A stretch of DNA of 61,803 bases from an uncultured Oscillospiraceae bacterium (GTDB lineage: Bacteria > Bacillota > Clostridia > Oscillospirales > Acutalibacteraceae): NCBI GenBank assembly GCA_902489335.1, contig CABTZO010000001.1, forward strand, positions 1 to 61,803, in the 5' to 3' direction. Position 1 is the stretch's first letter, and every line of letters begins with the position of its first letter. Shown one piece after another: positions 1,298 to 30,859 of this stretch. The position numbers and the translations under genes were made by a program. The notes under the pieces were generated by a model that saw only the letters and a list, made by a program, of their open reading frames with translations, was not told where the DNA came from and ran no database searches.

Positions 1298-1342
1298 AAA
1301 CTTTAAAATAATTTTATCACAACCTTATCCTATTAACAAATA

Positions 1343-1362
1343 AAAACCGCCGCAGCGGTTTT
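1343..1362 (-). terminator. Intrinsic terminator ending the T-box operon
   Basis: Hairpin aaaaccgc-cgca-gcggtttt. On the minus strand it is followed by TTTTTATTT and it abuts the TAA stop at 1362-1364. Confidence 0.7.
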
Positions 1363-3893
1363 TATTTGTTCTTATCTTTCAAACGATTTATCGCATCTTC
1401 TCTTAGTTTTGTCTTCAGAACTTTTCCTGCATGATTCATCGGAAACTCGCTTATAAATTCGACATATCTCGGCACTTTATGTCTTGCCATATTTTGTCGG
1501 ACAAAATCTTTCATCTCATCTTCTGTCATTTTCTCGTTTTCTTTTAGAATCACAGACGCCAAAATCTCTTCGCCGTATTTTTCGTCGGGAACACCTATGA
1601 CCTGAACGTCGCTCACTTTGGTATTTGTGTAGATGAATTCTTCAATCTCTTTGGGATAAATATTTTCGCCGCCGCGAATTATCATATCTTTCAGCCTACC
1701 CGTTATCTTGAAATTTCCGTCCTCTGTTTTAATCGCAAGATCTCCCGTATGTAACCAGCCGTCGTTGTCAATCGCACTCTTTGTTGCCTTTGGCATTTTA
1801 TAATATCCTTTCATAACATTATATCCACGTGCGATAAATTCACCGGTCTCATTTATTTTGCAATCTTGTCCGGTATTTGGATCTATTATTTTGCACTCAA
1901 TTTCAGGTAAAGGTCTTCCGACAGTTGAAACTCTGACATCAAGAGGGTCGTCGACAAAACTCATCGTGCAGCCGGGTGCGGCTTCCGTTTGACCGTAGAC
2001 AATGGTTATCTCACTCATATTCATTTTTTCGACGACATCTTTCATCACTTTCATCGGGCAGGGACTTCCCGCCATAATTCCCGTTCGCATAAATGAAAAA
2101 TCCGTTTTAGAAAAGTCTTCGTGATTTAACATCGCAATAAACATTGTCGGTACGCCGTGACAAGCGGTAATATGCTCATTATTTATACAACTTAAAGATG
2201 ATTTCGGCGTAAAATACGCAAGTGGATACAGAGTTGTGCCATGGGTAATTCCCGCAATCATCGCAAGCACCATGCCAAAACAATGAAACATCGGTACATG
2301 AATCAAAAGTCTGTCGGCAGTCGAAAAGTCCATTCTGTCTCCGATACACTTTCCGTTATTTATAATATTATAATGCGTCAACATTACGCCTTTTGGAAAT
2401 CCCGTCGTTCCGGAAGTATATTGCATATTGCAAACATCATCTTTGCTAACCCTTTCAGCCATTGCATAGACAGTTTGCAAACTCGTTTTGTCTTTTTGTT
2501 TCAAAGATTCAATAAAGCTCAGAGTTCCTTTTTTCTTAAATCCGACCGTAATAATGTTTCGAAGCATAGGCAGGCGTCTTGCATAAAGAGGATCATCTTT
2601 CTTTTTAGTCTTTATTTCCGGACACAATTCTTCAATTATAGCACTGTAATCAGACAGCTTTGAACCTTTTGTCATAATCAAAGTGTGTGCGTCCGACTGT
2701 TTAAGAAGATATTCGGCTTCGTGTATTTTATATGCGGTATTCATCGAAACCAAAACCGCGCCGATTTTTGTTGTTGCCCAAAAAGCTATATACCACTCGG
2801 GAATATTCGGCGCCCAAATTGCAACGTGAGAGCCTGCTTTTACACCCAAAGATACCAAGGCTCTTGCAAAATCGTCGACATCATCCCGAAACTCGGAAAA
2901 TGTCCTAGTGTAATCCAAAGTCGTATATTTTATGGCACATTGATCCGGAAAAGCCTTAACCATTTTATCCAAAAGTGACGGCAAAGTTTCCGAAATCAAA
3001 ACATCTTTTTTCCACAACATTTTCCCGGTGTGCGATCTGTTGTAATAAAAATTTTCTTTATTTTTTGACGGGTCGGCAAATCTCTGCATAAAACCGTTAA
3101 ATTGAGTCAGAATAATTTCAATATCCTTGTATTCATCCAAAAGTTCTTTTTCACAGACAAAAGTTATAAATCCGTTATAGTTAATTGATGAAAGCGCATC
3201 CATAATTTCATCGGCGGGAAGGCTTCCCTCACCCATAATACGAGATTTCCAAATGCCGTTTTCGTTTATAGCATCTGCAAAATGAATATGTTTAATATAT
3301 GCGCCAAGATTTTCTATTGTATGTTGAGGATCTTTTTCACCGTAAAGGCAGGTTCCCTTTACATTCCACAAAGCGCCCAACTCTAGTGAAGGATTTTCTT
3401 CGAATAAGGCTCTCAAAAGTTCGGTGTCACAGAATACGCCCTTTGTTTCAATCAAAAGTTGAACTCCGCTCTTTCTTGCCTTATCCGACATCGGCTTGAG
3501 TTCTTTTTCAAGTAAAGATAAAAACTCTGATTTATCTTCAAAAGAAGTCATAAACTGAAGTCTGACGTAAGGAATATCTAAAATTTCCGCTATATAAACG
3601 CATTTTTCAAGTTCGGAATATGCATTTTTATAATTTTCATTGTCTTTATTTTTAATACAAAGCGCCGACATATCGGAGGTTGTATCCATACAGACAAGCG
3701 AAAGTTTATTGTCTAAAAGAAACCGCCTTGTTTTCGCACTTGTATAATCGTGAAAAGCGCCCATTTTATCAGTAAAAAGGCTGTTTTTTATGTTATGAAG
3801 CTCCAACCCTTGAAAGTCCGTGTCTTTAGCGATTTGGCACAGTTTATTAAAATTATAATCGCTGTAGCATTTGGTAGAAAAAGAAAGTTTCAT
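1362..3893 (-). CDS. Fusion protein: N-terminal xylose-isomerase-like TIM-barrel (AP_endonuc_2 / sugar-phosphate isomerase-epimerase family) plus C-terminal AMP-forming acyl-CoA synthetase (FadD-like)
   Basis: Residues 1-~270 carry TIM-barrel motifs (LIETKG, IKHIHFAD, GFITFVCE). The remainder carries adenylate-forming motifs (YTSGTTGFPKGVMLTH, YGQTE, GWLHTGD, GRLKDMIIRGGENIYP). RBS GAGGAG lies upstream of the ATG. Confidence 0.85.
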   Translation of the reverse strand: MKLSFSTKCYSDYNFNKLCQIAKDTDFQGLELHNIKNSLFTDKMGAFHDYTSAKTRRFLLDNKLSLVCMDTTSDMSALCIKNKDNENYKNAYSELEKCVYIAEILDIPYVRLQFMTSFEDKSEFLSLLEKELKPMSDKARKSGVQLLIETKGVFCDTELLRALFEENPSLELGALWNVKGTCLYGEKDPQHTIENLGAYIKHIHFADAINENGIWKSRIMGEGSLPADEIMDALSSINYNGFITFVCEKELLDEYKDIEIILTQFNGFMQRFADPSKNKENFYYNRSHTGKMLWKKDVLISETLPSLLDKMVKAFPDQCAIKYTTLDYTRTFSEFRDDVDDFARALVSLGVKAGSHVAIWAPNIPEWYIAFWATTKIGAVLVSMNTAYKIHEAEYLLKQSDAHTLIMTKGSKLSDYSAIIEELCPEIKTKKKDDPLYARRLPMLRNIITVGFKKKGTLSFIESLKQKDKTSLQTVYAMAERVSKDDVCNMQYTSGTTGFPKGVMLTHYNIINNGKCIGDRMDFSTADRLLIHVPMFHCFGMVLAMIAGITHGTTLYPLAYFTPKSSLSCINNEHITACHGVPTMFIAMLNHEDFSKTDFSFMRTGIMAGSPCPMKVMKDVVEKMNMSEITIVYGQTEAAPGCTMSFVDDPLDVRVSTVGRPLPEIECKIIDPNTGQDCKINETGEFIARGYNVMKGYYKMPKATKSAIDNDGWLHTGDLAIKTEDGNFKITGRLKDMIIRGGENIYPKEIEEFIYTNTKVSDVQVIGVPDEKYGEEILASVILKENEKMTEDEMKDFVRQNMARHKVPRYVEFISEFPMNHAGKVLKTKLREDAINRLKDKNK

Positions 3894-3896: not shown

Positions 3897-5264
3897 CTAA
3901 CTCTCCTCATACATAATCTTATTGACCGCATTTATATAAGCCATTATACTTGCGCCTATTATATCGGTTGAGACGCCTTTTCCGGAATATAGTTTTCCGT
4001 CAGAACGAAGTTTTACCAAGGTTACACCGATAGCTTCCTTGCCTTTTGTGACTGATTTAATCTGAAAATCGTCAAGTTCATATCTCTTTCCGACAATGTT
4101 GTCAAGAGCCAAAAATGCGGCGTCAATCGGTCCGTTTCCGCTTGCAAGTCCGACATATTCTTTGCCCTCTTTTTCAACTGTAATCTGTGCATTTGAAGAA
4201 AAGGAACTTACGCTTGTAATCACATAATTTTTAACTTTGTAGACCGACGGTGCTTGCAGTGCAACTCCGGCAATAATTGCGTCTAATTCAACCGCACCGA
4301 CATTTTTGTTTTTCACCACTTTTTTTACTTCGTTAAATACTTTGAGTTTATCTTCATTTGAAAGATCATATCCCAAACTTTCAATCGCTTCGACGACAAC
4401 CGTTTCATCATCATTTACATCAAGTATGATTTTGCTTTCTATCTGCGAATCATCTTTAATATCAAACTTTATTTTATCGTTTTGCCGGGGAGAATCAATT
4501 TGAGAAATATTATTTACGGTTTTATATAGTTTTGAATATTCTATATTGCTGTCAATCAGATATTTATTTCCGTTTTCCCTTAAAAACTCACAAAACTCCG
4601 TAAGCGGTGTGATTTCCCCGTTTATTTGAGTCTTGACAAAATTAAATCCGTTTTTCACCGCCATAGCAGATGTCGCATTTGCAGTGTTTATTTTATTATA
4701 CGCACAAACCGCCAAATTTGATTTATTTTCAAAAGCTATTTTTTCTGTTAAGTTCAAATATTCATCGGGCAAAACACTTGAAGCACTGTCGCAGATTGTT
4801 ACAAAAGAAACTTCTTTGGAAAAAGCTTCGGATACAACTTCCTTAAGAAAGTTTTTATCCGCTCTTGTCGCATCTATGGCACAAAGTTCAATCGTTTCAG
4901 CATAAGATTTCATTTCTTCAATACTTGTTTTAATGTAACTTAAAACATCTTGCGGTTTCTTATGAAAAAGATATTCCATTCCGAGAGTCGAAACGGGAAC
5001 TTCCAAACGAAGCACATAATCTTTTCTGTCGCCGAAAGCGTCCTTTAATTTACCAAAAGGAACAGAGAGTTTAGCGTGACCGAGCAAGCCCAAAAGTGTC
5101 TTAACGAACAACAAATCTACTTTTTCGTCTTGAAGTTGAGGAAGTTCTATAACATCGACGCCCAACCTGTCAAGTTGCTTTGCTATTTCAAGTTTTTCTT
5201 TGAATGTAAACTCTTTATCATTTCTACAGAGCGTAGAATCAATAATCGTTATTTTTCTCATCTT
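3897..5264 (-). CDS. LeuA/CimA-like (HMGL-family) protein with degenerate catalytic motifs and an intact C-terminal LeuA_dimer regulatory domain
   Basis: Start moved to MRKITII (ATG 5264, RBS AAAGGAG 8 nt upstream). Canonical DTTLRDGEQ reads DSTLCRNDK and HCHND reads CAYNK. The C-terminus keeps GNGPIDAAFLALDNI...TDIIGASIMAYINAVNKI. Confidence 0.75.
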   Translation of the reverse strand, partial: KMRKITIIDSTLCRNDKEFTFKEKLEIAKQLDRLGVDVIELPQLQDEKVDLLFVKTLLGLLGHAKLSVPFGKLKDAFGDRKDYVLRLEVPVSTLGMEYLFHKKPQDVLSYIKTSIEEMKSYAETIELCAIDATRADKNFLKEVVSEAFSKEVSFVTICDSASSVLPDEYLNLTEKIAFENKSNLAVCAYNKINTANATSAMAVKNGFNFVKTQINGEITPLTEFCEFLRENGNKYLIDSNIEYSKLYKTVNNISQIDSPRQNDKIKFDIKDDSQIESKIILDVNDDETVVVEAIESLGYDLSNEDKLKVFNEVKKVVKNKNVGAVELDAIIAGVALQAPSVYKVKNYVITSVSSFSSNAQITVEKEGKEYVGLASGNGPIDAAFLALDNIVGKRYELDDFQIKSVTKGKEAIGVTLVKLRSDGKLYSGKGVSTDIIGASIMAYINAVNKIMYEES

Positions 5265-5281
5265 TCTGCTCCTTTTGAAAC

Positions 5282-5308
5282 AAATTTCCGAGTTTAACTC
5301 GGAAATTT
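5282..5308 (-). promoter_or_regulatory. Intercistronic 11-bp perfect stem-loop (aaatttccgag-tttaa-ctcggaaattt)
   Basis: Seen directly in the 48-nt gap between the OFOR gamma gene and the LeuA-like gene. On the minus strand it is followed by GTTTCAAAAGGAG (a weak U-tract, then the RBS). Confidence 0.5.
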
Positions 5309-5312
5309 GCAA

Positions 5313-5852
5313 TTAGTCTTGATAATTAACGCCTATTTTTATTGCCTTTAAATTATAGTCAAATAAATCTGCTTTTCTTTTGGAAATTATCTTTTTGAGA
5401 GTTGTTTCAACCATATTTTCATCAAATTCATCAAAGACTTTCATCATCTTTCCCGCAATAATCATATTTGCAAGTGTAGGTATATCATTTTCACTTGCCA
5501 ATCCCGTGGCAGGTATATAATAAACGGTGACATCGTCTCGTTTAACTTTTCTGTCTATCAGCGATGAATCAGCAAAAATCATACCGCCGCTTTTAACAGA
5601 ATTTTCAAATCGATCGAGAGACGGGAGATTCATTGCGACCAAGACATCCGGTTTTGAAACAATCGGTGATCCGACAGGCTCATCTCCGACAATTACACTG
5701 CAACTTGCGGTACCTCCGCGCATTTCCGGACCGTAAGACGGAAGCCAACTTACATTTTTATCTTCAAGTAAACTTTTATAAGCGATGAACTTTCCGGTAA
5801 ACAGAATTCCCTGTCCGCCGAATCCCGAAAACAACAAGTTTCTGTTACTCAT
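5313..5852 (-). CDS. 2-oxoacid:ferredoxin oxidoreductase, gamma subunit
   Basis: 179 aa with the N-terminal GFGGQGIL motif typical of OFOR gamma subunits. It overlaps the beta gene by 4 nt. Confidence 0.85.
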   Translation of the reverse strand: MSNRNLLFSGFGGQGILFTGKFIAYKSLLEDKNVSWLPSYGPEMRGGTASCSVIVGDEPVGSPIVSKPDVLVAMNLPSLDRFENSVKSGGMIFADSSLIDRKVKRDDVTVYYIPATGLASENDIPTLANMIIAGKMMKVFDEFDENMVETTLKKIISKRKADLFDYNLKAIKIGVNYQD

Positions 5853-6607
5853 TTTGTTGCCTCCCTTTCCGCACTACGATCTTTATATACGCCTAAAGGA
5901 TAATATGGAATCATTTTATCGTCTATCCACTTTAAAGCCTCTTTTGGTGTCAAGCCCCAGTTTGTGGGGCAGGTTGACAGAACTTCAATAAGAGAAAAGC
6001 CCTTGTTTTCAAGCTGATTTTGAAATCCTTTTTTTATTGCCTTTTTGGCGTTTTTTATTCCCTTAATGCTGTTAACCGTAACTCGTTCAAGATATTCGGG
6101 GCCCTCAAGTTCGGATAACATTTCACAAACCTTTATCGGATATCCGCAATCTTCTGCTTTACGTCCGTAGGGCGAAGTTTGTGTAACTTGATCTATCAGC
6201 GAAGTCGGGGCCATTTGACCGCCGGTCATGCCGTATATTGCGTTGTTTATAAATATTATTGTTATATTTTCATTTCTTGCCGCCGAATGAACAGTTTCCG
6301 CCATTCCGATTGATGCAAGATCGCCATCACCCTGATATGAAAACACAATATTATTCTCGGGATCCGCTCTCTTTACACCGGTTGCAACTGCGGGCGCTCT
6401 TCCGTGTGCCGCTTCGATCATATCAAAATTAAAATAATTATAGGCTAAAACTGAACAACCGACAGGTGCAATTCCTATTGTTCTGCCCTCAATTCCAAGT
6501 TCGTCAACAGCTTCCGCTATCAGTCTATGCACAATTCCGTGAGTACATCCCGGGCAATAGTGCAGGGGCTCATCAGATAAAGATTTTGGTTTATCAAATA
6601 CTACCAT
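5849..6607 (-). CDS. 2-oxoacid:ferredoxin oxidoreductase, beta (TPP-binding) subunit
   Basis: Carries CPGCTHG, the GDGD...NN TPP motif (YQGDGDLASIG...FINNAIYGMTGGQ) and STCPTNWG. Confidence 0.9.
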   Translation of the reverse strand: MVVFDKPKSLSDEPLHYCPGCTHGIVHRLIAEAVDELGIEGRTIGIAPVGCSVLAYNYFNFDMIEAAHGRAPAVATGVKRADPENNIVFSYQGDGDLASIGMAETVHSAARNENITIIFINNAIYGMTGGQMAPTSLIDQVTQTSPYGRKAEDCGYPIKVCEMLSELEGPEYLERVTVNSIKGIKNAKKAIKKGFQNQLENKGFSLIEVLSTCPTNWGLTPKEALKWIDDKMIPYYPLGVYKDRSAEREATK

Positions 6608-6617
6608 AATTTCCTCC

Positions 6618-7670
6618 TCACTTACTTGCTTTCACTATGGCATCCAACACCTGTTCGGGTGTCGGTATCATGCCGCCGGTTCTGTTGCAAAGTTCAACGG
6701 GCACCTTACATTCACAAGCGAGTTTTACATCTTCAATCATTTGTCCCATCGACATTTCAACTGTAATAATCTTTTTAACCTTGTTTGCTGCTTCATTAAA
6801 TACCTTTTTAGGAAACGGCCATAAAGTTATTGGTCTGAGTAGTCCTACTTTTATTCCCATTTTACGCGCTTCGTTTATTGCATTTTTTGAAACTCTTGCG
6901 GAAATTCCGAAAGCGGCAATGCAAATTTCGGCATCGTCCATAAGATAACTTTCATACATCGTTTCGTTTTCTTCGATTTTTTTATATCTTTCATATCTGG
7001 CAAAAACTTTATCTTCCAGTGTTTGAGGATCTAAGAAAAGAGAATTTATAACATTCTTCTCTCTCTTTCCTTTTGTTCCGTCAGTCGCCCACGGTTTTTC
7101 AACCTTATCTTCAATTTTAAAATCTAAAGATACGGGTTCCATCATCTGTCCGAGTGTTCCGTCGGCTAAAATCATTGATGTCATTCTGTATTTATCTGCA
7201 AGATCAAAACCTTTGACGGTAAGTTCCGCCATTTCCGCAACAGATGCGGGTGCCAAAACTATCAAATGAAAATCTCCGTGTCCGCCGCCCTTGGTTGCCT
7301 GAAAATAATCTGACTGACTCGGTTGAATTCCTCCGAGTCCGGGTCCGCCTCTTTGAACATTGACTACAAGAGCGGGCAAGTCTGCTCCGGCAAGATATGA
7401 AAGTCCTTCACTTTTTAATGCAATTCCGGGACTTGAAGAAGAGGTCATTACTCTTTTGCCTGCGGAAGAAACTCCGTATACCATGTTTATTGCGGCAATT
7501 TCACTCTCTGCCTGTAAAAACACTCCTCCGATTTTAGGCATTCTCTTTGCCATGTATGCGGCAACTTCCGTTTGTGGCGTAATAGGATATCCGAAATAAT
7601 GTCTGCAACCTGCAATGATAGCGGCTTCCGCTATCGCTTCGTTGCCTTTCATCAAAACTTTTTCTGTCAT
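6618..7670 (-). CDS. 2-oxoacid:ferredoxin oxidoreductase, alpha subunit
   Basis: 350 aa with typical alpha-subunit blocks (GNEAIAEAAI.AGCR.YFGYPITPQTE, QRGGPGLG). Confidence 0.9.
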   Translation of the reverse strand: MTEKVLMKGNEAIAEAAIIAGCRHYFGYPITPQTEVAAYMAKRMPKIGGVFLQAESEIAAINMVYGVSSAGKRVMTSSSSPGIALKSEGLSYLAGADLPALVVNVQRGGPGLGGIQPSQSDYFQATKGGGHGDFHLIVLAPASVAEMAELTVKGFDLADKYRMTSMILADGTLGQMMEPVSLDFKIEDKVEKPWATDGTKGKREKNVINSLFLDPQTLEDKVFARYERYKKIEENETMYESYLMDDAEICIAAFGISARVSKNAINEARKMGIKVGLLRPITLWPFPKKVFNEAANKVKKIITVEMSMGQMIEDVKLACECKVPVELCNRTGGMIPTPEQVLDAIVKASK

Positions 7671-7888
7671 TGATTTTTCTCCTCCTTTTCAACGGAAATT
7701 ACGCAGTCAGGACACATCATGGCACAGAAAGCACAACTGATACAGTCCGCTTCTCTTACCGCCTCCACAGGATGATGTCCTTTCTTATTTATAGCCGTTT
7801 TAGATAATTCAAGAACTTTTTTGGGACAAACATCTACACAAAGACCACAGCCTTTACATCTGTCTTCCATTATTGTTAGCTTCTTCAT
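7667..7888 (-). CDS. 2-oxoacid:ferredoxin oxidoreductase, delta subunit (2x[4Fe-4S] ferredoxin)
   Basis: 73 aa with two CxxCxxCxxxCP motifs (CKGCGLCVDVCP, CISCAFCAMMCP). It overlaps the alpha gene by 4 nt. Confidence 0.9.
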   Translation of the reverse strand: MKKLTIMEDRCKGCGLCVDVCPKKVLELSKTAINKKGHHPVEAVREADCISCAFCAMMCPDCVISVEKEEKNQ

Positions 7889-7906: not shown

Positions 7907-8557
7907 TCAAATTGTTGTTTGCAATTTCAAAGGGAACAAATTATTTATTCTGTCTTTCAAACTGTCGTATAAATCTTCTCTCACACTTGTCATTACAATC
8001 GGCAGATTTGTCCTTTTCGATAGCTCTTCGGCTTTTTTTACAGAGTTTAAAATATCTTTTTCGTCGGTTGCACTGCCGATATTTGAATTATTTATAATGC
8101 CGGTGAAATGAAATCTTGAAGCAAATTCAATCTCTTCCATTATTTTTATTATGTCTTCCACTTCAGAGCTTAAAGGTCTGTAAAAATTAACTGTAACAAA
8201 CATATCATATTCGTCTTCCCCCACTCTCGAATGCAGTCTTCCTAAAGCAAGGGCTCCTCTTTCGTCTCCGCCGACATCGACGATGAAATTAAAATCTTTT
8301 TCATCTGCGACAGAATACATTTGTTGAGGAAGAGATGGAATATCTAAATTACTGTTTGCAAAGTCTGAGGCAATGAGTTCAATATTGTATTTTGATAAGA
8401 TTTCTTTGCTGTCCTTTGTTCTGAAATAGGGATTGACTATATCAAGATCGGCAATTTTTATTTTTTCGTTTTCCTTTGCCTTTTTTATAGCCAAATTTAC
8501 CGCAACATTTGTTTTCCCGCTGCCGTAATGACCGGCAATAAATGTAACTCTTTTCAT
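7907..8557 (-). CDS. P-loop NTPase (SIMIBI class, MinD/CooC-like), unknown role
   Basis: Start moved to MKRVTFIAGHYGSGKT, where the ATG overlaps the ilvE TGA (TGATG). It has a Walker A motif (GHYGSGKT) and a DVGGDE Walker-B-like motif. Confidence 0.7.
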   Translation of the reverse strand: MKRVTFIAGHYGSGKTNVAVNLAIKKAKENEKIKIADLDIVNPYFRTKDSKEILSKYNIELIASDFANSNLDIPSLPQQMYSVADEKDFNFIVDVGGDERGALALGRLHSRVGEDEYDMFVTVNFYRPLSSEVEDIIKIMEEIEFASRFHFTGIINNSNIGSATDEKDILNSVKKAEELSKRTNLPIVMTSVREDLYDSLKDRINNLFPLKLQTTI

Positions 8558-9651
8558 CAATCTTTTAAGTTGAGCGGATAGGTCCAACCCATAAAGTCTT
8601 CAAGTTTTCCTGTTTGCATTCCGTAAAGGGTGTCGTAAAGTTTTTGGGCAGTTTCTCCGACTTTTCCGTCTCCGACTTGATAATCTTTTCCCTTATAATT
8701 TAAAACCCCGATAGGTGAAATTACAGCTGCGGTTCCGCTCGCAAAAATTTCTTTCAAACTATTATCTTCTGAAGCTTTGAGTATGTCATCAATAGAAAGT
8801 TTTCTTTCACTGATTTTCATTCCCCAATGTTTTAATAGCTTGATAACAGAATCCCTGGTGATGCCGGGCAATATTGTTCCGCTGTCAAGAGGAGCGGTAA
8901 TTACTTCATCACCGATTTTGAAGAAAGCGTTTGAAGTGCCGATTTCTTCGACATATTTATGTTCCAAAGCATCAAGCCAAAGGACATCTTTACAGTTATA
9001 TTTCATAGCATTCTTAGAAGCTCTCATTCCTCCGCCGTAGTTTCCTCCGACTTTGGCAAATCCGGTTCCGCCGGGCACCGCACGAACATATTCGTCTTCG
9101 ACATAAATTCTCGTTGTGCTGAGTCCTCCGTCATTTGCCGCATAATATGAACCTGTTGGGCTGAGAATTATCATAAATTTATAGTGCTTTGCGGGAAGAA
9201 CGGAAAAAGAAACTTCGTCTCCAAAGATAAACGGTCTGATATACATCGCCGTACCTTCAAGTTTTGGCATCCAATCGGCGTCAACCTTGATTAACTGTTC
9301 AACCGCTGCGACCAACAGGTCATCCGGTAAATCCGGAATACACATTCTCTCGTTTGTGTTTTTCATTCTCTTGACATTCATATCCGGTCTGAAAATCTGA
9401 ATGCCTCCGTCCGGGCGTCTGTATGCTTTCATTCCCTCAAACATCATCTGAGCATAGTGAAGAACGCAGGACGCGGGTTCAATCAGAAAAGGTTCATTCG
9501 GAACAATTCTTCCGTCGTGCCAGCCTTGATCTTCATCATAATCCATTACAAACATGTGATCGGTAAAATATCTTGCAAAACCGAGCTTTGTTTCATCTTC
9601 CGGTCTTTTCTTGGGACTTTTTGTCCTCTCAACTCTAAAATTGTAACTCAT
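8557..9651 (-). CDS. ilvE: Branched-chain amino acid aminotransferase (class IV, long form)
   Basis: 364 aa with conserved blocks (HYAQMMFEGMKAYR, GGTGFAKVGGNYG, ILPGITRDSV). Confidence 0.9.
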   Translation of the reverse strand: MSYNFRVERTKSPKKRPEDETKLGFARYFTDHMFVMDYDEDQGWHDGRIVPNEPFLIEPASCVLHYAQMMFEGMKAYRRPDGGIQIFRPDMNVKRMKNTNERMCIPDLPDDLLVAAVEQLIKVDADWMPKLEGTAMYIRPFIFGDEVSFSVLPAKHYKFMIILSPTGSYYAANDGGLSTTRIYVEDEYVRAVPGGTGFAKVGGNYGGGMRASKNAMKYNCKDVLWLDALEHKYVEEIGTSNAFFKIGDEVITAPLDSGTILPGITRDSVIKLLKHWGMKISERKLSIDDILKASEDNSLKEIFASGTAAVISPIGVLNYKGKDYQVGDGKVGETAQKLYDTLYGMQTGKLEDFMGWTYPLNLKD

Positions 9652-9669: not shown

Positions 9670-10458
9670 TTATAAATTATAAATTTCTGCTCTTCTGTCA
9701 TTAAAGACATTAATATCTCGGCGAATTTTATTGACTGTTTCAAAATTGCACTCGCAAAAATCAATCTCTTCTTTACCGCCTAAATTGTAAAGTTCATTTC
9801 CCAAAGGGTCAAAGGCTATGGAATTTCCTCCGTAAACTGTTTTTTCTGCCTTTCCACACGAATTACAGGAAACCGCAAAGATTTGATTTTCAATTGCCCT
9901 CGCCTTTAAAAGTGACTTAAACTGTTCAATCCTTTCTTTGGGCCACTGGGCGACGACAAAAATCAATTTTATCCCATCAAGTGCAAGACTTCTTATCAAT
10001 TCGGGAAATCTCAAATCGTAGCAAATTATTACCGCAGCTTTTTCTCCGTCGACTAAAAATGTCTTATACCCTTTTCCTTTTTCAAAATATTTGTCTTCTT
10101 CCATCGGTGAAAATAGGTGACATTTATCATATTCGCAAATAACGGTTCCGTTTCTGTCAAATACAAAAGAAGTATTGTATATTTTGCCGTCATTTTTTTT
10201 ATTCATCACGCTTCCGGCAACAGCATTCACCTTATATTTTTTACAGAGTTCACCGAAAAGTCTTTTCGTCTTTTCTCCGTTTATGTCGGCAAATTCCGAT
10301 AAATCATTTTTAGGAAAAAATCCCACATCCCACATTTCAGGATAAACAATAACATCCGGATTTTTTGACAATGCTTTATCGAACATCTTTTTAGCCAAAT
10401 CATAATTTGATTCTTTATTTAGAAAAGTCATATTCATTTGGCAACATGCTATTTTCAT
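9670..10458 (-). CDS. Carbon-nitrogen hydrolase family protein (Nit/omega-amidase-like)
   Basis: The E-K-C triad context is present: VIVYPEMWDVGF, YDKCHLF, AVIICYDLRFPE. Confidence 0.8.
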   Translation of the reverse strand: MKIACCQMNMTFLNKESNYDLAKKMFDKALSKNPDVIVYPEMWDVGFFPKNDLSEFADINGEKTKRLFGELCKKYKVNAVAGSVMNKKNDGKIYNTSFVFDRNGTVICEYDKCHLFSPMEEDKYFEKGKGYKTFLVDGEKAAVIICYDLRFPELIRSLALDGIKLIFVVAQWPKERIEQFKSLLKARAIENQIFAVSCNSCGKAEKTVYGGNSIAFDPLGNELYNLGGKEEIDFCECNFETVNKIRRDINVFNDRRAEIYNL

Positions 10459-10466: not shown

Positions 10467-12734
10467 CTACAGTTTATTTCTCTGTATTTTTCCGCTTATG
10501 GTTTTCGGGAGACTATTTCTAAAGACAACTTTTCGCGGATATTTATACGGAGCGGTATTAGATTTTACATATGTCTGAATTTCTTTTATAAGTTCTTCAC
10601 TGCCCTCTGTTCCGTCAACCAATACCACACTCGCTTTAACAATCTGACCTCTTATCTCATCTTTTTCGGCTGAGACTCCACATTCCAAAACATAGGGTAG
10701 TTCCATTATTACGCTTTCAATTTCAAACGGTCCGATTCTATAACCGGATGATTTAATAACATCGTCAACTCGTCCGACATACCAGAAGAATCCGTCTTCG
10801 TCTCGCCAAGCAGTGTCTCCTGTATGATAAGCTCCGTCATGCCAAACTTCCTTGGTTTTTTCATCATCGTTATAGTAACCCATAAAGATTCCGGGCGTAT
10901 TCTTGGCTGAAGTTTTGACAACGATTTCACCGATTTCACCGTTTGGCAAACTGTTTCCTTCTTCATCGACTATATCAACATCATAAAGAGGAGTTGCCTG
11001 TCCCATTGAACCGAATTTATGTGTGTTGCCCATTAAATTTGCTATTACGAGAGCAAGCTCGGTCTGACCGAATCCCTCCATTATTTCAAGCCCCGTACTG
11101 TTTTTAAACTGTTTGTATACTTCCGGATTTAAGGCTTCACCGGCTGTTGTCATATGTTTGATGCTTGAAAAATCATACTTTGATAAATCTTGTTTAATCA
11201 TCATTCTCAGGATTGTAGGTGGTGCACAGAATGAAGTTATACCGTATTTCTCGAAAAGAGGCATTATATCCGCCGCATCAAAACGGTCAAAATCATATAC
11301 GAAGACTGCACCTTCACAGAGCCATTGTCCGTAAAGTTTTCCCCACATAGCTTTGGCCCAACCGGTTTCGGCAATTGTAAAATGAAGACTGTTGTGTTCA
11401 ACTCCGTGCCAATATTTTGCCGTTATGTAATGTCCTAAAGCATATTTATAGTTATGCATCGCTATTTTGGGATAACCTGTAGTTCCGGAAGTAAAGAACA
11501 TCAACATTGGGTCATTTCCGCAAGGAGAATCGTTTCTTCTTCTAAAATGGGTGCTGAATAACTGATATTCTTCGTCAAAATCATGCCAGCCTTCTCTCTC
11601 TCCGCCGACAAGAATTTTGTTTTGAAGTTTTCCGACTTTCTCTTCGGCCAGTTCTACCTGATGAGCAACATCACCGTCCGCGGTACATAAAATTGCACTG
11701 ACTCCGGCACTTTCAAATCTGTATTCAAAATCATGGGATTGTAGTTGATTTGTTGCAGGAATTGCTATTGCACCGAGTTTATGCAGTCCTAAAATTGCAA
11801 ACCAAAATTGATAATGTCTTTTAAGAACAAGCATAACCCTGTCTCCGCGTTTAATACCCAAAGATTTGAAATAATTGGCCGCTCGAGCAGAATTTTTTCG
11901 CATGTCATCATAGGTAAATTTTCTTTCAACTTTGTCTTTCGACAGATGAATCATTGCTGTTTTTGTCGGATCTTTTTTTGCTACTTTGTCAACAACATCA
12001 AAAGCAAAATTAAAATTATCATCATTTTTGAATTTGATATCAAGTAAGGACCCGTTTTCATCTTCATGAAGCTCAATGAAATCTGCGCTTACACCGTGCT
12101 TAGATGCTTTTATAGGTGCAATTACCGTCTCTCTCGTTTTCTTTTCGTTTTCTTCTTCTCCCGGCAAAACAACGGCAAGGAAAAAACAATCTTCTCCGTT
12201 TACGGCTATCATTCCGTGAGGTGTTGCGCTGTTATAGTAAATACTGTCGCCCTCATTAAGATATTCAATATGATCTCCGACTTGAACTTTAAGGCAACCG
12301 CTCATAACATAATCAAATTCTTGACCTTTGTGTTTTGTCAAATGAATTGGTCTGTTTTGTAGCTCTTGGCTGAACTCATATTTAACAAAATAGGGTTCTG
12401 CTATCTTTTTACGAAAAAGCGGAGCAAGATTTTTTATATCTATTCCCGGTTCTTTTGCAGTCTCCTGTCCTTCGCCTTTTCTTGTGACATTGTAAAACGA
12501 AAGATGTGCGCTAACCCCTTCTAAAATATCGGTTACACCTATATCAAAAACCAAGGAACATTTATGTATAAATGTAAACGGAAAGTCCTGTGTTCCGCTC
12601 TCAAAATTTCTATATTCCTCTAAACTGACATCTGTCTTTTCAGCCATTTCTTCCTGTGACAGACCTGAAATTTCGCGCATTTCCTTTATTCTTGTAGCTA
12701 TTTCAAATAATTTTTCTGCTGCAACAGTTGTCAT
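10467..12734 (-). CDS. Tri-domain fusion: XRE-type HTH, cupin, and AMP-forming (medium-chain/acetyl-CoA-synthetase-like) acyl-CoA synthetase
   Basis: HTH_3 segment (EMREISGLSQEEMAEKTDVSLEEYRNFESG). Cupin segment (HKGQEFDYVMSGCLKVQVGDHIEYLNEGDSIYYNSATPHG). Adenylation motifs (FFTSGTTGYPKIAMH, GFGQTE, YHTGDTAWRDEDGFFWYVGRVDDVIKSSGYRIGP, SGKIQR). RBS AAGGAGG 8 nt upstream. Confidence 0.85.
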   Translation of the reverse strand: MTTVAAEKLFEIATRIKEMREISGLSQEEMAEKTDVSLEEYRNFESGTQDFPFTFIHKCSLVFDIGVTDILEGVSAHLSFYNVTRKGEGQETAKEPGIDIKNLAPLFRKKIAEPYFVKYEFSQELQNRPIHLTKHKGQEFDYVMSGCLKVQVGDHIEYLNEGDSIYYNSATPHGMIAVNGEDCFFLAVVLPGEEENEKKTRETVIAPIKASKHGVSADFIELHEDENGSLLDIKFKNDDNFNFAFDVVDKVAKKDPTKTAMIHLSKDKVERKFTYDDMRKNSARAANYFKSLGIKRGDRVMLVLKRHYQFWFAILGLHKLGAIAIPATNQLQSHDFEYRFESAGVSAILCTADGDVAHQVELAEEKVGKLQNKILVGGEREGWHDFDEEYQLFSTHFRRRNDSPCGNDPMLMFFTSGTTGYPKIAMHNYKYALGHYITAKYWHGVEHNSLHFTIAETGWAKAMWGKLYGQWLCEGAVFVYDFDRFDAADIMPLFEKYGITSFCAPPTILRMMIKQDLSKYDFSSIKHMTTAGEALNPEVYKQFKNSTGLEIMEGFGQTELALVIANLMGNTHKFGSMGQATPLYDVDIVDEEGNSLPNGEIGEIVVKTSAKNTPGIFMGYYNDDEKTKEVWHDGAYHTGDTAWRDEDGFFWYVGRVDDVIKSSGYRIGPFEIESVIMELPYVLECGVSAEKDEIRGQIVKASVVLVDGTEGSEELIKEIQTYVKSNTAPYKYPRKVVFRNSLPKTISGKIQRNKL

Positions 12735-12744
12735 TTCAGTTTCC

Positions 12745-13025
12745 TCCTTATAAAAAAACGCACCCGTCTCAATGATTTTTCATTGAGACGGATGCTAATC
12801 ATCCGCGGTACCACTCAAATTGCGACAAATATGTCGCCACTCACAGAGCCCAACAGCTCCTTTGCACTAACGTAGCAATTCACGAAAGACCCTACTAAAT
12901 AAAAATTTTTCAAATCTCCAGCTCAGAAGTGATAAGCAATTGGCGTTTTTTATTATCGGTTCTCACCAACCACCGACTCTCTTTAATAAAAATTCGCCTG
13001 CCGTCTTCATCACAGCTTTTTTTGT
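12745..13025 (-). promoter_or_regulatory. T-box riboswitch leader, specifier read as AUC (Ile), with terminator/antiterminator
   Basis: Read on the minus strand. K-turn GCUGUGAUGAAG / CUUCUGAGC. Helices GGCG/CGCC and UUUUUAUUA/UAAUAAAAA. AG bulge AAGAGAG. Distal loop GGUUGGUGAGA. F-box-like ACGUUAG. Stem III GCGACAuauuUGUCGC. T-box AAUUUGAGUGGUACCGCGG (plus-strand 12803-12821) with a UGGU bulge. Antiterminator helices UUGAG/CUCAA and CGGAUG/CAUCCG. Terminator CCGUCUCAAUGA-aaaa-UCAUUGAGACGG plus U7 (12752-12791). Confidence 0.88.
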
Positions 13026-13032
13026 TTTCTGA

Positions 13033-13061
13033 ATTCTATATCTAATGTATTTTTTTGTCAA
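13033..13061 (-). promoter_or_regulatory. Sigma-A promoter of the T-box operon (TTGACA-17 nt-TAGAAT)
   Basis: The -35 element is at 13056-13061 and the -10 element at 13033-13038 (minus strand). This places the TSS a few nt before the Stem I K-turn. Confidence 0.65.
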
Positions 13062-13165
13062 TATATAATTTGTTTTTTATTAAAAACAACAAAGTTTAAT
13101 TGAGAAATATATTTTGTTTTTGTTGACTTCGCCCTATATTTGAACTTTTTATTTTAATTTTGATA

Positions 13166-17295: not shown

Positions 17296-20200
17296 TTTTA
17301 TATAGACTTGATACAATTTCTTCGGCAGTGGACAGAGGCCCCGAACTGTTTATCGTTACAATAACTTGTGGTCTTTTGCCCTTTCCGATTCTTAGACGAT
17401 CGTTAAAATCTTTATCAAGCATTTTTATTTCATCCATTTCAAAATTATCTTTATAGACAAATATTTCATTTCCCTGTTGACTTATTTCATTTATACCTAA
17501 ATCTGCGGCTTTGCGTCTTAGCAAAGCCGTTTTTATCAGTGTTATAACCGATGTTGGGGGGTTAGAGAATCTGTCTTCAAGTTCAGAAACCAGTTCTTTG
17601 GCATCCATCTCGGAATTCAAATCGGCTATTCTGCGATAAACATATAATCTCTGGTTTAAATTTTCGATATAATCTTCGGGTATGTGAGCATTTATTCTTA
17701 TATTTATCAAGCAGTCTTTATCATCATAAGTAAAATCGGTTTTTTCTCCCTTTTGCTTTTTTATGGCATTTGAAAGAAGTTTAACATACATCTCATATCC
17801 GACGGCATTCAATTGACCGCTCTGCGCCTTGCCTAAGAGATTCCCTGCTCCGCGCAATTCCAAATCTCTCATAGCAATTTTAAAGCCGGATCCAAAAGCT
17901 GTATATTCTCTTATCGTTCTAAGTCTTTTCTCTGCAATTTCCGAAAGTTGTTTGCCTCTTGTAAAAGTAAAATACGCATAGCCTTTCAATGTGCTTCTGC
18001 CAATTCTGCCCCTTATTTGATGAAGCTGTGCAAGGCCCATTCTGTCAGCATTTTCAATTATCAAAGTATTTACATTTGGAACATCCACACCGGTTTCAAT
18101 TATTGTAGTGCATACTAAAACATCGGTTTGATGATTGAGCAATTTCTTCCAAACCTTCGTCAACTGTTCTTCATTCATTCGACCGTGTGCAATATCGATT
18201 CTTGCACGATCGCCGGTCATTTCTTCAACTTTCCGTGCCGTTTGCTCAATTGTATCAATGTCATTATGCAAGTAATACACTTGCCCATGTCGTCTTAGTT
18301 CTTTGTCAATGGCAGCCGCAATTATTCTTTTGTCGTATTCCAAAACATAGGTTTGAATCGGTTGCCTGTCTGCGGGTGCCTGTTTGAGTGCCGATAAATC
18401 TCTTAGTCCGGACACCGCCATATTCAATGTTCTCGGTATTGGTGTTGCCGACAAAGTAAGCACATCAACATTGGGATATTTATTTTTTAACTTTTCTTTT
18501 TGAGTTACACCAAATCTTTGTTCTTCATCGACAATTAAGAGTCCGAGATCCTTAAATTTTATGTCTTTTGATAAAAGTCGGTGCGTTCCGACAATCATAT
18601 CAATGTTGCCTGCGGACAAATCTTTTAAAATAGTCTTCTGTTCTTTTGCCGTTCTGAAGCGCGAAATCATATCGACTGCAACGGGAAAGTCAGCAAACCG
18701 CCTTGTAACAGTCAGATAATGTTGATAGGCAAGAATCGTTGTAGGCACAACAAACGCAACCTGTTTACCCTCAACTATCGCCTTAAAAGCCGCTCTAAGC
18801 GCAACTTCGGTTTTTCCGAAACCTACATCACCGCAAAGCAGTCGATCCATAGGATAAGATTTTTCCATATCCTCTTTTATTTCTCCGACTGCCTTTAGTT
18901 GATCATCCGTTTCTTCGTATTCAAATCGACTTTCAAAATCATTTTGCAAGTCAGTATCGGGCATATAAGCATAGCCTTTGATTTTCATTCTCTTAGAGTA
19001 TAGAGCAATCAATTCTTTTGCTATATCATCGGTCTGTGCTTTGATTTTTTGCTTTGTGTTTTGCCATTGTTTTGATCCGAGCTTGTTTAATTTTGGCGCA
19101 ACACCGTCTTTTGAACTTCCTATATATTTTGACAATAAATCAAGTTGATTGACAGGCATAAAAAGTTCATCACTTTTGTCATATTTAATTTTTATGTAGT
19201 CCTTTGTAACGCCCGTTATAGTAAGTGTCTCGACACCGTCAAAAATTCCTATTCCATAATTTGAATGGACTACATAGTCACCTTTTTGCAAATCAGAAAG
19301 CGAATGAAAAGCATTTTTATTTTTGTTCTTTTTTATTCTTCGCTTTTCACTTTTTCGTATATTTGAACTGATAATTTTGAGTCCTGATTGAGGGAGACTC
19401 ATAGATTCAGATAAATTACCCTCTAAAATATTAATTGAATATAAATTAAGAGGTTCCGATAAACTATTAAGTAAATTTGCATTGATTTCTTCTTCAACCA
19501 ATGCTTTATAAACATTTTTAGCTGCTTTCGCCGTTCCGGCGTAAAGAATATAGGTATAATCCTTGTCCTGTGTTTCTTCGTGTAAGTCTTTTATTGAACC
19601 CTGCCAGTTGCTTTGAAACATTGAAGAAGTATTAAACTTATGCTTGATTTCAAGCGGAATATTACCGCGTAAAAATGTATCCGCAAGAATTACATTTCTT
19701 TTATAAATGTCGTTAAACAAAGCATCTGTATGTGTTATGAATTCAGAGTTTTTCTTAGTTATAAGTTTAGACTCAAGCGCAAACTTGATATCTTCAAAAA
19801 AAATCTTAGCCTCTGCCTTTGTGTTTTTGTATGCGTTATATCCGTCACAGAGAAAAATCGTTGCCTTATCAAAATAATCAAGAAGTCCCGTCATTTCATA
19901 ATATTTTGGCATATATTTATCGGGATTTTCTTTTTGATTGATCTCTTCGTCTTCAAAAATATATTCTTTAGCCGGAACAATTTCTATTTTGTCGGTTTCT
20001 CCAAACCGCCTCTGCGAGTCAACATCAAAAAAATAGATTTTTTCTATTTCATCGTCAAAAAAATCTATTCTGAAAGGATGCTTTTGACCGGGAACAAAAA
20101 GATCAAAAATTTCTCCTCGATTTGAAAAGGTTCCGACGCCTTCAACTTCATCACTCATTACATAACCTGAAAATAAAAGCTTCTCTTTGAGATTGCTTAT

Positions 20201-26283: not shown

Positions 26284-27022
26284 TTTTTCCCTCTTTTCTT
26301 TGAATCGCAACTTCATTGAGTATGATTCCGGCAGCAACAGATGCATTTAGTGAATCTATTTTTCCATAAAGCGGTATTGAGATTAAAAAATCACAATTTT
26401 CTTTCATCTTTTGAGATATTCCCTTGCCTTCCGAACCTATAACTACGGCAATATTTCCGGTCATATCAGTCTTTTTTAAATTTTCTCCGTGCATATCTGC
26501 TCCATAAATCCAAAGGCCTTCCTTTTTTAATTTTGAAACAGTATTCAAAAGATTAGTAACTCTTGCAATTTTTATATATTCGACTGCGCCGGCTGAAGCT
26601 TTGGAAACCGTAAAGTTAACGCTTGCACTTCGGCGTTCCGGAATTATTACTCCGTCAGCGCCCATGCATTCCGCACTTCTTATAATCGCACCTAAATTAT
26701 GCGGATCAGAAATTCCGTCACAAATAACAATAAATTTATTTTCGTTTTTTGATGAATTTAATATATCGTCTACTGAAAAATATTCATATGAGGACGCTTT
26801 GGCGACAATCCCCTGATGATTTCCTTGAGCACACATAAAATCCAACTTTTTAGAATCTACGGTTTTTATCAATGCTCCGCTTTTTTTTGCTTTGAATATC
26901 AAGCTTTTAATAATTTCAGAATTATTATCTCGGTCAACGTAAACCGTGTCAATCTGACGTTTTGCTCTCAACGCTTCATTTACGGCGTTTTTTCCGATAA
27001 TTAATTCATCTGCCTGTATCAT
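26276..27022 (-). CDS. rlmB: TrmH-family 23S rRNA (Gm2251) 2'-O-methyltransferase
   Basis: SpoU/TrmH motifs are present (DGISDPHNLGAIIRSAE, VIGSEGKGIS, IPLYGKIDSLNASVAAGI). Confidence 0.85.
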   Translation of the reverse strand: MIQADELIIGKNAVNEALRAKRQIDTVYVDRDNNSEIIKSLIFKAKKSGALIKTVDSKKLDFMCAQGNHQGIVAKASSYEYFSVDDILNSSKNENKFIVICDGISDPHNLGAIIRSAECMGADGVIIPERRSASVNFTVSKASAGAVEYIKIARVTNLLNTVSKLKKEGLWIYGADMHGENLKKTDMTGNIAVVIGSEGKGISQKMKENCDFLISIPLYGKIDSLNASVAAGIILNEVAIQRKEGKND

Positions 27023-27223: not shown

Positions 27224-28450
27224 ATGTCAAAAATAAATAAAATTGTACTTGCTTATTCGGGAGGACTTGATACCTCTATTATAATTCCTTGGCTTAAGGA
27301 AAATTATGAAAATTGTGAAGTTATTGCGGTTGCAATAGATGTCGGTCAGGGAAGTGAACTTGACGGTCTTGAAGAAAAAGCAAAAAAAACCGGAGCTTCT
27401 AAACTCTATATCGAAGATTTAACAAAAGAATTTGTTGAAGACTGTATTTTCCCGACAATAAAGGCAGGAGCAAAATATGAGGGCAAATACTTGCTCGGAA
27501 CATCTTTTGCGCGTCCGATTATGGCAAAAAGACTTGTTGAAATAGCTAAAGCGGAAAATGCGGATGCTATTTGTCATGGTTGCACAGGAAAAGGAAACGA
27601 TCAGGTTCGCTTTGAATTATCAATTAAGGCTCTTGCACCGAACATTAAGATAATTGCTCCTTGGAGAACTTGGGAAATCAAATCAAGGGAAGAAGAGATT
27701 TCCTATGCCGAAAGTCACAATGTTCCTTTGAAGATAAACAGGCAGACAAATTATTCAAAAGATAAAAATATCTGGCACCTTTCACATGAAGGTCTTGATC
27801 TTGAAGATCCGGCAAATGAACCTCTTTACGAGAAAGACGGATTTTTAGAAATGGGCGTTTCTCCGCTTAATGCACCCGACAAGCCCGAATACATAAGCAT
27901 TGGTTTTGAAAAAGGAAATCCGATTTCATTAAACGGAGAAAAATTAAGTGCCGTTGAACTCCTTAAAAAGCTCAATGAAATCGGAGGTAAAAATGGTATC
28001 GGTATAATCGATATCGTGGAGAATCGTCTTGTCGGCATGAAATCTCGCGGAGTTTATGAGACCCCGGGTGGAACTATTTTATATGAAGCACATGAAATGC
28101 TTGAAAGTCTAACACTGGATAAAGATACGATGCATTTTAAATCTATTTTGTCAAATAAATATGCAGAGATTGTTTATAACGGAAAATGGTATACAACGCT
28201 TAAGCAAGCTTTGGATAAATTTGTAGAAGAAACTCAGCAAACCGTAACGGGAGAAGTCAAACTTAAATTATATAAGGGAAACATCATCAACGCAGGTATT
28301 ACATCTCCGTATTCTCTTTACAGCGAAGAATTTGCAACCTTCAATGAAGATGAAGTTTACAATCAAAATGATGCAACAGGATTTATAAATCTTTATGGTC
28401 TTCCCCTTAAAGTTAAAGCTATGTTATACGGAAACGGAGAGCAAAAATGA
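27224..28450 (+). CDS. argG: Argininosuccinate synthase
   Basis: Motifs AYSGGLDTS and [13 protein letters not shown] are present. Confidence 0.95.
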
Positions 28451-30850: not shown

Positions 30851-30859
30851 GAGAAATAT

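Follow-up and report, generated by a model that had tools for sequence, protein, structure and literature searches.

The window described here is a stretch of 61,803 nucleotides (nt) from an uncultured Oscillospiraceae bacterium (contig CABTZO010000001.1, assembly GCA_902489335.1). Located on its minus strand is a complete T-box leader with the isoleucine codon AUC as its specifier, and behind the leader lie ten closely spaced metabolic genes, referred to as g1 to g10. On the basis of the anatomy of the leader, the protein families encoded by the genes, and the conserved association of T-box and genes in related genomes, the T-box is proposed to drive a ten-gene set for the synthesis of isoleucine (Ile) by salvage of 2-methylbutyrate. 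A probability of roughly 0.8 is assigned to this explanation as a whole.

The T-box leader

Provided in Table 1 are the coordinates of the leader and of the genes behind it. A search of the whole window with Rfam cmscan yielded a match to RF00230 at 13022..12781 on the minus strand, with a score of 114.1 bits versus a gathering score of 93, an E-value of 1.8e-24, and an alignment that covers the model completely (positions 1-219 of 219). No further T-box was found in the window by the Rfam scan, even at an E-value of 0.01. The two promoter hexamers, separated by 17 nt, agree with the consensus at 11 of 12 positions and score higher than any other promoter-like site over the 14.5 kb examined. 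From the -10 hexamer to the start of the Rfam match is a distance of 11 nt.

The anatomy of the leader is that of the complete family, including Stem II and the IIA/B element in addition to the features listed in Table 1. The 5' arm of the terminator overlaps the 3' arm of the antiterminator, and thus the two helices are mutually exclusive. Their predicted folding energies are -30.1 kcal/mol for the terminator domain and -12.1 kcal/mol for the competing antiterminator. Base pairing would be expected between the UGGU bulge of the T-box sequence and the 3'-terminal ACCA of a tRNA having the discriminator base A73.

For the structural alignment, 33 orthologous leaders were folded to a consensus with RNAalifold. 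Compensatory double changes are observed in 32 of the 59 consensus pairs, and the covarying helices include the C-stem of the kink-turn (K-turn), three helices of Stem I (among them the apical helix and those above the specifier loop), Stem II, the IIA/B hairpin, Stem III, and the terminator. The segment UGGUACCGCG is invariant in all 33 sequences. A long-range pairing between CGU...GCUGC in the IIA/B region and GUGGU...CCG in the T-box sequence was likewise predicted by RNAalifold. Because G-U pairs abound in it and double compensatory changes are absent, this pairing was set aside as a probable artifact. It involves columns 158-170 and 235-245 of the alignment (A1), corresponding to window positions ∼12875-12860 and 12815-12803; if real, it would represent an anti-antiterminator.

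Relatives of g1 are encoded in at least 576 genomes. The best 80 of these, with protein sequence identities of 64-74%, were taken as the set of related loci (L001-L080), and they derive from gut and rumen assemblies of Ruminococcus, Oscillospiraceae, Acutalibacteraceae, Christensenellaceae, and Faecousia. A T-box core lies no more than 500 nt upstream of the g1 relative in 71 of the 80 loci. Most of the remaining loci are truncated where a contig ends or have the gene joined to the end of a different operon, and a variant core is present in one.

The specifier was assigned in two ways. In the Rfam alignment, the codon-plus-purine columns fall on AUC-A at 12933-12930. A second assignment was anchored on the K-turn, defined as a 2-bp C-stem, a 3-nt bulge, a G-A pair, one mismatch, and a 4-bp helix; the codon was then taken as the triplet 5' of the single base that abuts this helix. 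By this rule ATC is found in all 67 leaders upstream of g1 orthologues, the window included. The codon columns are invariant in the 33-sequence alignment, whereas the three bases that precede them vary (CCC, CCU, UUU, CAU, UCG, CUU), as does the base that follows.

The related clusters contain up to three T-boxes of differing specificity, all with the same Stem I architecture. With the identical K-turn, 4-bp helix, and register, the valine (Val) sister T-boxes display GUA in 47 cases and GUC in 6, and the leucine (Leu) sister T-boxes display CUC in 9 and CUG in 8. Synonymous switches between Val codons and between Leu codons are expected at the codon only, and the sister T-boxes therefore fix the register. 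When the three leaders of locus L005 are aligned to the Rfam model, its codon columns are occupied by AUC-A, GUA-G, and CUC-G. The T-boxes of that locus are positioned at 9721-9961, 12343-12589, and 19388-19624, and the arrangement is similar in most of the 80 loci. The Ile T-box precedes the g1 type of gene in 67 of 67 cases, the Val T-box precedes a g1 paralogue in 47 of 53, and the Leu T-box precedes g9 in 16 of 17.

Taken together, these data indicate that the element is almost certainly a canonical transcription-attenuating, terminator-type T-box specific for isoleucine. As a riboswitch it is ordinary, a new example within the known RF00230 family. An initial annotation of this DNA had claimed a complete T-box, and the full-length RF00230 match bears this out. 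The promoter, K-turn, AG bulge, distal loop, Stem III, T-box sequence with its UGGU bulge, and U7 tract were all found by direct reading where that annotation had placed them, the antiterminator and terminator exclude one another as it had proposed, and its choice of AUC at 12931-12933, rather than CUU or GCU, agrees with the Rfam alignment and with 66 orthologous leaders. It had relied on the Bacillus subtilis glyQS leader as a template, which was apt for the K-turn, the GAAG/CUUC helix, and the codon followed by A, but not for the specifier loop, which is more compact than the template and has no AGUA/GAA S-turn.

In the proposed mechanism, transcription would start ∼7 nt after the -10 box. 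The AUC specifier displayed by Stem I would then be read by tRNA-Ile through its GAU anticodon, with the platform formed by the AG bulge and the distal loop holding the tRNA elbow. Uncharged tRNA, by virtue of its free ACCA 3' end, would pair with the UGGU of the T-box sequence and stabilize the weak antiterminator, which would allow RNA polymerase to read through. With charged tRNA, the far stronger terminator and its U7 tract would form, and transcription would stop before the ATG of g1.

Two further observations concern the region around the promoter. A perfect palindrome, TTGTTTTT-N4-AAAAACAA, is positioned at 13070-13089, just upstream of the -35 box, and a third copy of TTGTTTTT occurs at 13114-13121; in such AT-rich DNA the palindrome could have arisen by chance. 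No CodY box, as a second Ile signal, was found near the leader; the window as a whole holds 12 matches as compared to 23 expected by chance.

Table 1. Features of the T-box leader and of the genes downstream of it. Positions are those of the window. Abbreviations: RBS, ribosome-binding site; TPP, thiamine pyrophosphate; NTPase, nucleoside triphosphatase; VOR, branched-chain 2-oxoacid:ferredoxin oxidoreductase; aa, amino acids.
Feature	Position	Strand	Details and basis
Sigma-70-type promoter	13033..13061	-	TTGACA 13061-13056, 17 nt spacer, TAGAAT 13038-13033
T-box leader RNA (RF00230), full length	12781..13022	-	Rfam match and covariation
Stem I	12921..13016	-	K-turn, specifier loop, AG bulge, distal loop; direct reading and covariation
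K-turn 5' strand	13016-13005	-	G13016 C / UGU bulge / G13011 A13010 / U13009 / GAAG 13008-13005
AG bulge AAGAGAG	12983-12977	-	direct reading
Distal loop GGUUGGUGAGA	12971-12961	-	direct reading
Specifier AUC (Ile)	12931..12933	-	followed by A12930, then CUUC helix strand; Rfam codon columns
K-turn 3' strand	12929-12921	-	CUUC 12929-12926 / U12925 / G12924 A12923 / G12922 C12921
Stem III	12838-12822	-	direct reading
T-box sequence AAUUUGAGUGGUACCGCGG	12803..12821	-	UGGU bulge at 12813-12810
Intrinsic terminator and U7	12752..12795	-	16-bp stem 12795-12760, U7 tract 12758-12752; best terminator-like site
RBS AAGGAGG	12749-12743	-	ATG of g1 at 12734
g1, XRE-type helix-turn-helix (HTH) + cupin + AMP-forming acyl-CoA synthetase, 755 aa	10467..12734	-	Pfam HTH_3/HTH_19, Cupin_2, AMP-binding, AMP-binding_C
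g2, carbon-nitrogen hydrolase, Nit2/Nit3 (omega-amidase) type	9670..10458	-	CN_hydrolase 155.8 bits
g3, branched-chain amino acid aminotransferase, class IV, IlvE type II	8557..9651	-	above NCBIfam equivalog cutoffs
g4, P-loop NTPase, 216 aa	7907..8557	-	faint CbiA/ParA/NUBPL/Fe-S-carrier similarity; weak hits only
g5, 2x[4Fe-4S] ferredoxin, delta subunit of 2-oxoacid:ferredoxin oxidoreductase	7667..7888	-	Fer4 Pfam hits
g6-g8, alpha (VorB-type), beta (TPP-binding), and gamma subunits of branched-chain VOR	5313..7670	-	POR_N, PFOR_II, TPP_enzyme_C, POR
g9, divergent LeuA/CimA-like 2-oxoacid-acetyl-CoA condensing enzyme	3897..5312	-	HMGL-like and LeuA_dimer (LeuA allosteric domain)
g10, xylose-isomerase-like TIM barrel + AMP-forming acyl-CoA synthetase, 843 aa	1362..3893	-	Pfam; second acid-activating enzyme
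Bidirectional stem-loop terminator closing the operon	1335..1370	.	16-pair palindrome, just before tRNA-Arg(CCU) 1223-1297

The ten-gene operon and its proposed pathway

The ten minus-strand open reading frames (ORFs) downstream of the leader are separated by intergenic gaps of -4 to +18 nt. No aminoacyl-tRNA synthetase was found among them by domain and family searches. It is reasonable that uncharged tRNA-Ile would turn on the whole set, because the gaps are tight, no convincing internal terminator is predicted in the operon, and a strong terminator follows only the last gene, g10.

An unlikely alternative is that the T-box governs only g1 or the first few genes, with those farther downstream being transcribed from promoters of their own. 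Such an arrangement would resemble that of most relatives, in which a second T-box lies between the first synthetase gene and the VOR genes and g9-g10 is often a separate unit, and several promoter-like hexamer pairs do occur within the operon genes. In the window, however, there is no second T-box, and stop and start codons overlap along the tightly packed genes. Moreover, the promoter-like sites number 50 versus a shuffled expectation of 39.7 (standard deviation 7.3), which is barely above chance, and the internal terminator-like sites are weak and fall within coding sequence.

For g1, the top NCBIfam model is MbcS, and the synthetase domain most closely matches, among solved structures, that of MacsMa from Methanosarcina acetivorans (3ETC, 591 bits). 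MacsMa acts preferentially on 2-methylbutyrate (PMC10455477), and MbcS from Staphylococcus aureus, which activates both 2-methylbutyrate and isobutyrate, has the same preference (PMC10026030). On this basis g1 is predicted to be a 2-methylbutyrate-CoA ligase. Database labels for the family are limited to "AMP-binding protein" or "acyl-CoA synthetase." The N-terminal HTH-cupin module of g1, encoded at window positions 12045-12734 (minus strand), is conserved in both the Ile-linked and the Val-linked paralogues, and its domain composition suggests a DNA-binding or ligand-sensing "trigger enzyme."

The second and third genes appear to belong together. The g2 protein matches the solved structures 3p8k, Nit2 (2w1v), and yeast Nit3 (1f89), and g3 scores 447.8 bits against NF009897 (cutoff 307) and 358.2 bits against TIGR01123 (cutoff 250). 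The branched-chain amino acid aminotransferase (BCAT) encoded by g3 is of a subtype that is 66-82% identical to its counterparts in L015, L019, L032, and L052. BCATs of the window type occur only beside the amidase, and the amidase only beside BCATs of this type, whereas the amidase-free clusters carry a subtype that is 45-53% identical. Pairs of glutamine transaminase and omega-amidase are known, and by analogy this distribution suggests that g2 and g3 constitute a functional couple.

For the P-loop protein g4 there is no NCBIfam match, and wherever the ferredoxin and VOR genes occur among the related loci, its gene directly precedes them. Speculatively, g4 may be a dedicated Fe-S maturation factor for the oxidoreductase. 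The g5 ferredoxin matches the OGOR_delta and PorD_KorD families, in all cases under the curated cutoffs, and the VOR alpha subunit matches NF005507 (VorB) with 542.4 bits versus a cutoff of 399. All four components of a VOR, namely the alpha subunit, TPP_enzyme_C, POR, and a 2x[4Fe-4S] ferredoxin, are thus encoded adjacent to one another. The product of g9 falls below every NCBIfam cutoff considered (LeuA, CimA, homocitrate synthase), and g10 reaches 683.8 bits with PRK12583, below the cutoff of 832. Searches with g4, g9, and the TIM barrel of g10 against solved structures and NCBIfam gave weak or sub-threshold matches only, and any roles for these proteins are putative. Across the related loci g9 is always paired with g10. 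The pair follows a Leu T-box in some genomes, lies inside the Val unit in L042, and forms the last part of the VOR operon both in L036 and in the window.

The operon probably serves mainly to form isoleucine, and possibly further branched-chain amino acids, through the reductive carboxylation of branched short-chain acids. In the proposed pathway, g1 would convert 2-methylbutyrate to 2-methylbutyryl-CoA. The VOR-type oxidoreductase (g5-g8) would next carboxylate 2-methylbutyryl-CoA with CO2 and reduced ferredoxin to yield 3-methyl-2-oxopentanoate, and the g3 aminotransferase would convert the latter to isoleucine. If glutamine is the amino donor, the g2 amidase could pull the transamination by destroying 2-oxoglutaramate. 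AMP-forming ligases drive acyl-CoA formation and thereby commit the acid to its CoA ester. The synthetic direction is favored because a T-box induces when charged tRNA-Ile is short and because the ligases are AMP-forming. Among anaerobes, ruminococci included, the carboxylation of branched-chain acids to branched-chain amino acids has been established physiology since the 1960s (Allison, Bryant, Doetsch 1962, as cited in PMC7356843).

The related loci support a pairing of acids with amino acids. In them the Val T-box precedes a g1 paralogue of 58-65% identity, followed by the P-loop gene, the VOR genes, and the BCAT gene, and the Leu (CUC/CUG) T-box precedes the pair of LeuA-like and TIM-barrel-ligase genes. 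In all 41 loci having both, the Ile-linked ligase is nearer to the g1 protein of the window than is the Val-linked copy (mean identities of 68.5% versus 62.8%). That Ile, Val, and Leu T-boxes stand before separate ligases that share one VOR and one aminotransferase fits with each ligase recycling the acid of the amino acid sensed by its T-box. The window has the Ile T-box only and lacks the Val-linked paralogue. Its amidase and aminotransferase genes directly follow g1, and g9-g10 is appended to the same operon.

It is also conceivable, although improbable, that an Ile-specific T-box controls an operon with another purpose, either the oxidative breakdown of branched-chain amino acids or the supply of acyl-CoA primers for anteiso fatty acids. 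BCAT and VOR also catalyze the oxidative conversion of isoleucine to 2-methylbutyryl-CoA, and in S. aureus fatty-acid synthesis is supplied by MbcS, the named protein to which g1 is most closely related. Induction upon a shortage of charged tRNA-Ile is, however, the wrong signal for the consumption of isoleucine, and the catabolic release of acids is known to proceed via ADP-forming ligases or a phosphotransacylase and kinase rather than via AMP-forming ligases. In addition, the association of each acid-activating gene in the relatives with its own Ile, Val, or Leu T-box fits a pairing of acid and amino acid and not the needs of membrane lipids.

Specifier register and other features of the window

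The specifier loop is unusually small. In the Ile class it is reduced to 5'-AC / 3'-N-AUC-N, and in the window it reads 5'-AC / 3'-U-AUC-A (window positions 12930-12937 and 13000-13004; columns 17-21 and 89-96 of alignment A1). The GG(N) that follows GAAG-AC pairs with the (N)CC that precedes the codon, and the third of these pairs is UA in 9 sequences, AU in 9, and CG in 8. In the window leader, G13002, G13001, and C13000 are paired with U12935, C12936, and G12937, respectively.

A T-box with a different specifier, be it UCA (Ser) at register +1, UAU (Tyr) at register -1, or one of the triplets CUU (Leu) and GCU (Ala) slightly farther upstream, is very improbable. The 3' strand of the window leader does include GCUUAUCA, and at register +1 the relatives have UCA, UCC, or UCG; as these all encode serine, the pattern superficially resembles wobble variation. 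The same register in the sister T-boxes of identical architecture gives UAG, UAA, UGG, and UGC, however. The -1 register gives CAU or UAU, a mixture of His and Tyr codons. Both GCU and CUU are unconserved and lie within the base-paired segment just described. Bacterial tRNA-Ser is known to carry G73, which would require UGGC rather than UGGU, and the Rfam alignment sets the codon on AUC. The UCN (Ser), YAU, CUU, and GCU specifiers were accordingly rejected on the basis of the Val and Leu sister T-boxes, the paired GCU, and the UGGU discriminator contact. Least credible of all is a decayed, nonfunctional T-box remnant: the specifier loop has no S-turn and several orthologous leaders fall under the Rfam gathering threshold (79.9 bits in L005, for example), but the window copy is above it over the full model, its functional elements are all intact, and compensatory changes have preserved the helices in lineages with protein identities of only 64-74%.

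A number of points weigh against the explanation favored here, that of an Ile T-box driving isoleucine synthesis from 2-methylbutyrate. With regard to the leader, the base 3' of the codon, which is A in the window, is A in 35, G in 2, and C, rather than the canonical purine, in 30 of the 67 Ile-class leaders. No S-turn (loop E, AGUA/GAA) was found in the specifier loop of the window leader or in the 33-leader alignment, because GGC at 13002-13000 pairs with GCU at 12937-12935; the S-turn is common in the T-box family, although not universal. No tRNA-Ile gene was found in the window or in 60 related loci, and the GAU anticodon and A73 are those predicted from bacterial tRNA-Ile(GAU), which carries A73. 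The discriminator A73 is, moreover, common to tRNA-Val and tRNA-Leu, so that it is not diagnostic for isoleucine. With regard to the enzymes, g1 misses the equivalog cutoff of MbcS (440.8 versus 850 bits), and its substrate is therefore a prediction. The reductive direction of the VOR is deduced from the logic of the T-box and the AMP-forming ligase and is not legible in the sequence. Finally, the wiring of the window is a minority arrangement: in most relatives the VOR and BCAT genes lie behind a Val rather than an Ile T-box, and g9-g10 is under a Leu T-box, as opposed to the Ile switch of the window.

Several other features of the window were noted. The hisS-aspS operon (48951-52316, minus strand) has a 330-nt upstream region that contains no T-box even at an E-value of 0.01, and the only T-box in the 62 kb is therefore that on the metabolic operon. 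A single 536-aa ORF at 53707-55317 (minus strand) encodes a threonylcarbamoyl-AMP synthase (Sua5/YciO/YrdC and Sua5_C) fused to dephospho-CoA kinase (CoaE), an uncommon combination. Two ORFs have no Pfam match at an E-value of 1e-5, one of 940 aa at 23524-26346 (minus strand) and one of 488 aa at 35045-36511 (plus strand), the latter at the end of a row of arginine biosynthesis genes comprising argG, argH, argJ, and an argD-like gene (27224-34998). The Rfam scan revealed a transfer-messenger RNA at 37456-37808 (minus strand, 149 bits), which was not reported by ARAGORN, and a small signal recognition particle RNA at 40865-40963 (minus strand, 63.8 bits). The tRNA-Arg(CCU) gene at 1223-1297 is likewise on the minus strand.

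Significance and comparison with known systems

In the survey of Wels et al. 2008 (PMC2494555), 62% of T-box targets were tRNA ligases, 18% were biosynthetic genes, and 12% were transporters, with branched-chain amino acid biosynthesis in Clostridia among them. The initial annotation was correct in describing a ten-gene operon without an aminoacyl-tRNA synthetase and in identifying the first gene, on what are now Pfam matches to HTH_3/HTH_19, Cupin_2, and AMP-binding, as encoding an HTH-cupin-acyl-CoA synthetase, but its emphasis on the missing synthetase as remarkable was misplaced. A T-box with no aminoacyl-tRNA synthetase downstream is not unusual, with ∼38% of T-boxes being of this type. 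The notable point is the identity of the biosynthetic genes under control. T-boxes that govern acyl-CoA ligases or ferredoxin oxidoreductases are unmentioned in Wels et al. 2008 (PMC2494555) and in Sun et al. 2013 (PMC3766115). No publications were found that tie a T-box to an acyl-CoA synthetase/VOR cluster, or the physiology of branched acids to genes, although literature coverage was incomplete and this is absence of evidence only.

The value of the T-box lies in its use as an annotation key, in that the specifier codon would indicate that the cell wants the ten genes when isoleucine is short. Together with the Val and Leu sister T-boxes, it would provide a purpose and probable substrates for a large family that presently carries only generic labels. 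Many fiber-degrading Firmicutes of the rumen and gut require branched-chain volatile fatty acids, from which they build branched-chain amino acids, and isoacids are fed as supplements in ruminant nutrition. If the proposed role is true, the cluster would be a target for genetics, for enzyme assays, and for the metagenomic prediction of isoacid dependence.

A broader proposal, for and against which the odds seem about even, is that this T-box is one arm of a widespread, unannotated Oscillospirales regulon present in at least 576 gut and rumen genomes. In such a regulon, paralogous ligases would each be gated by the T-box of the amino acid that they regenerate, with the Ile T-box controlling ligases of the g1 type (2-methylbutyrate), the Val T-box the paralogue (isobutyrate), and the Leu T-box g9-g10 (perhaps isovalerate), all of them served by one shared VOR and aminotransferase. 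If this is true, the specifier codon would predict the substrate of each ligase, and the cluster would be the long-missing genetic basis of the ruminococcal requirement for branched-chain fatty acids. The window would then represent a variant collapsed onto a single Ile switch, its added aminotransferase and omega-amidase pair would make the final step irreversible, and the HTH-cupin module might make the ligase a DNA-binding trigger enzyme.

With respect to enzymes, the closest characterized relatives of the g1 catalytic domain are MacsMa (3ETC) and MbcS, both short branched-chain acyl-CoA synthetases. Only g1 carries the additional N-terminal HTH-cupin module of ∼230 residues, and, whereas MbcS feeds fatty-acid synthesis, g1 is encoded alongside VOR and BCAT behind a T-box. 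With respect to physiology, the predicted steps from acid to acyl-CoA to 2-oxoacid to amino acid are the same as those of the ruminococcal carboxylation work of the 1960s, and the cluster is present in rumen and gut genomes of Ruminococcus, Oscillospiraceae, and Acutalibacteraceae. The earlier work supplies the physiology and the window the genes, and the sequences suggest that the two may be linked.

With respect to the RNA, the leader belongs to the same Rfam family and would employ the same mechanism as the branched-chain T-box leaders of Firmicutes, such as those of ileS and of the B. subtilis ilv-leu operon (Leu specifier), and it displays the same order of Stem I, Stem II, IIA/B, Stem III, and antiterminator/terminator. 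The AUC specifier is common to it and the ileS leaders. As in the ilv type, the supply of an amino acid would be controlled and not tRNA charging alone, but the genes in question are an acyl-CoA synthetase, VOR, and BCAT set rather than ileS or the ilv pathway, and the specifier loop differs from those of the ileS and ilv leaders in its reduced form without an S-turn. The B. subtilis glyQS leader shares with that of the window a basal K-turn, a specifier loop in which the codon occupies the 3' strand and is succeeded by a single unpaired base, and a UGGN bulge for recognition of the discriminator. It differs in its specifier and discriminator and in having neither Stem II nor IIA/B, both of which are present in the window leader.

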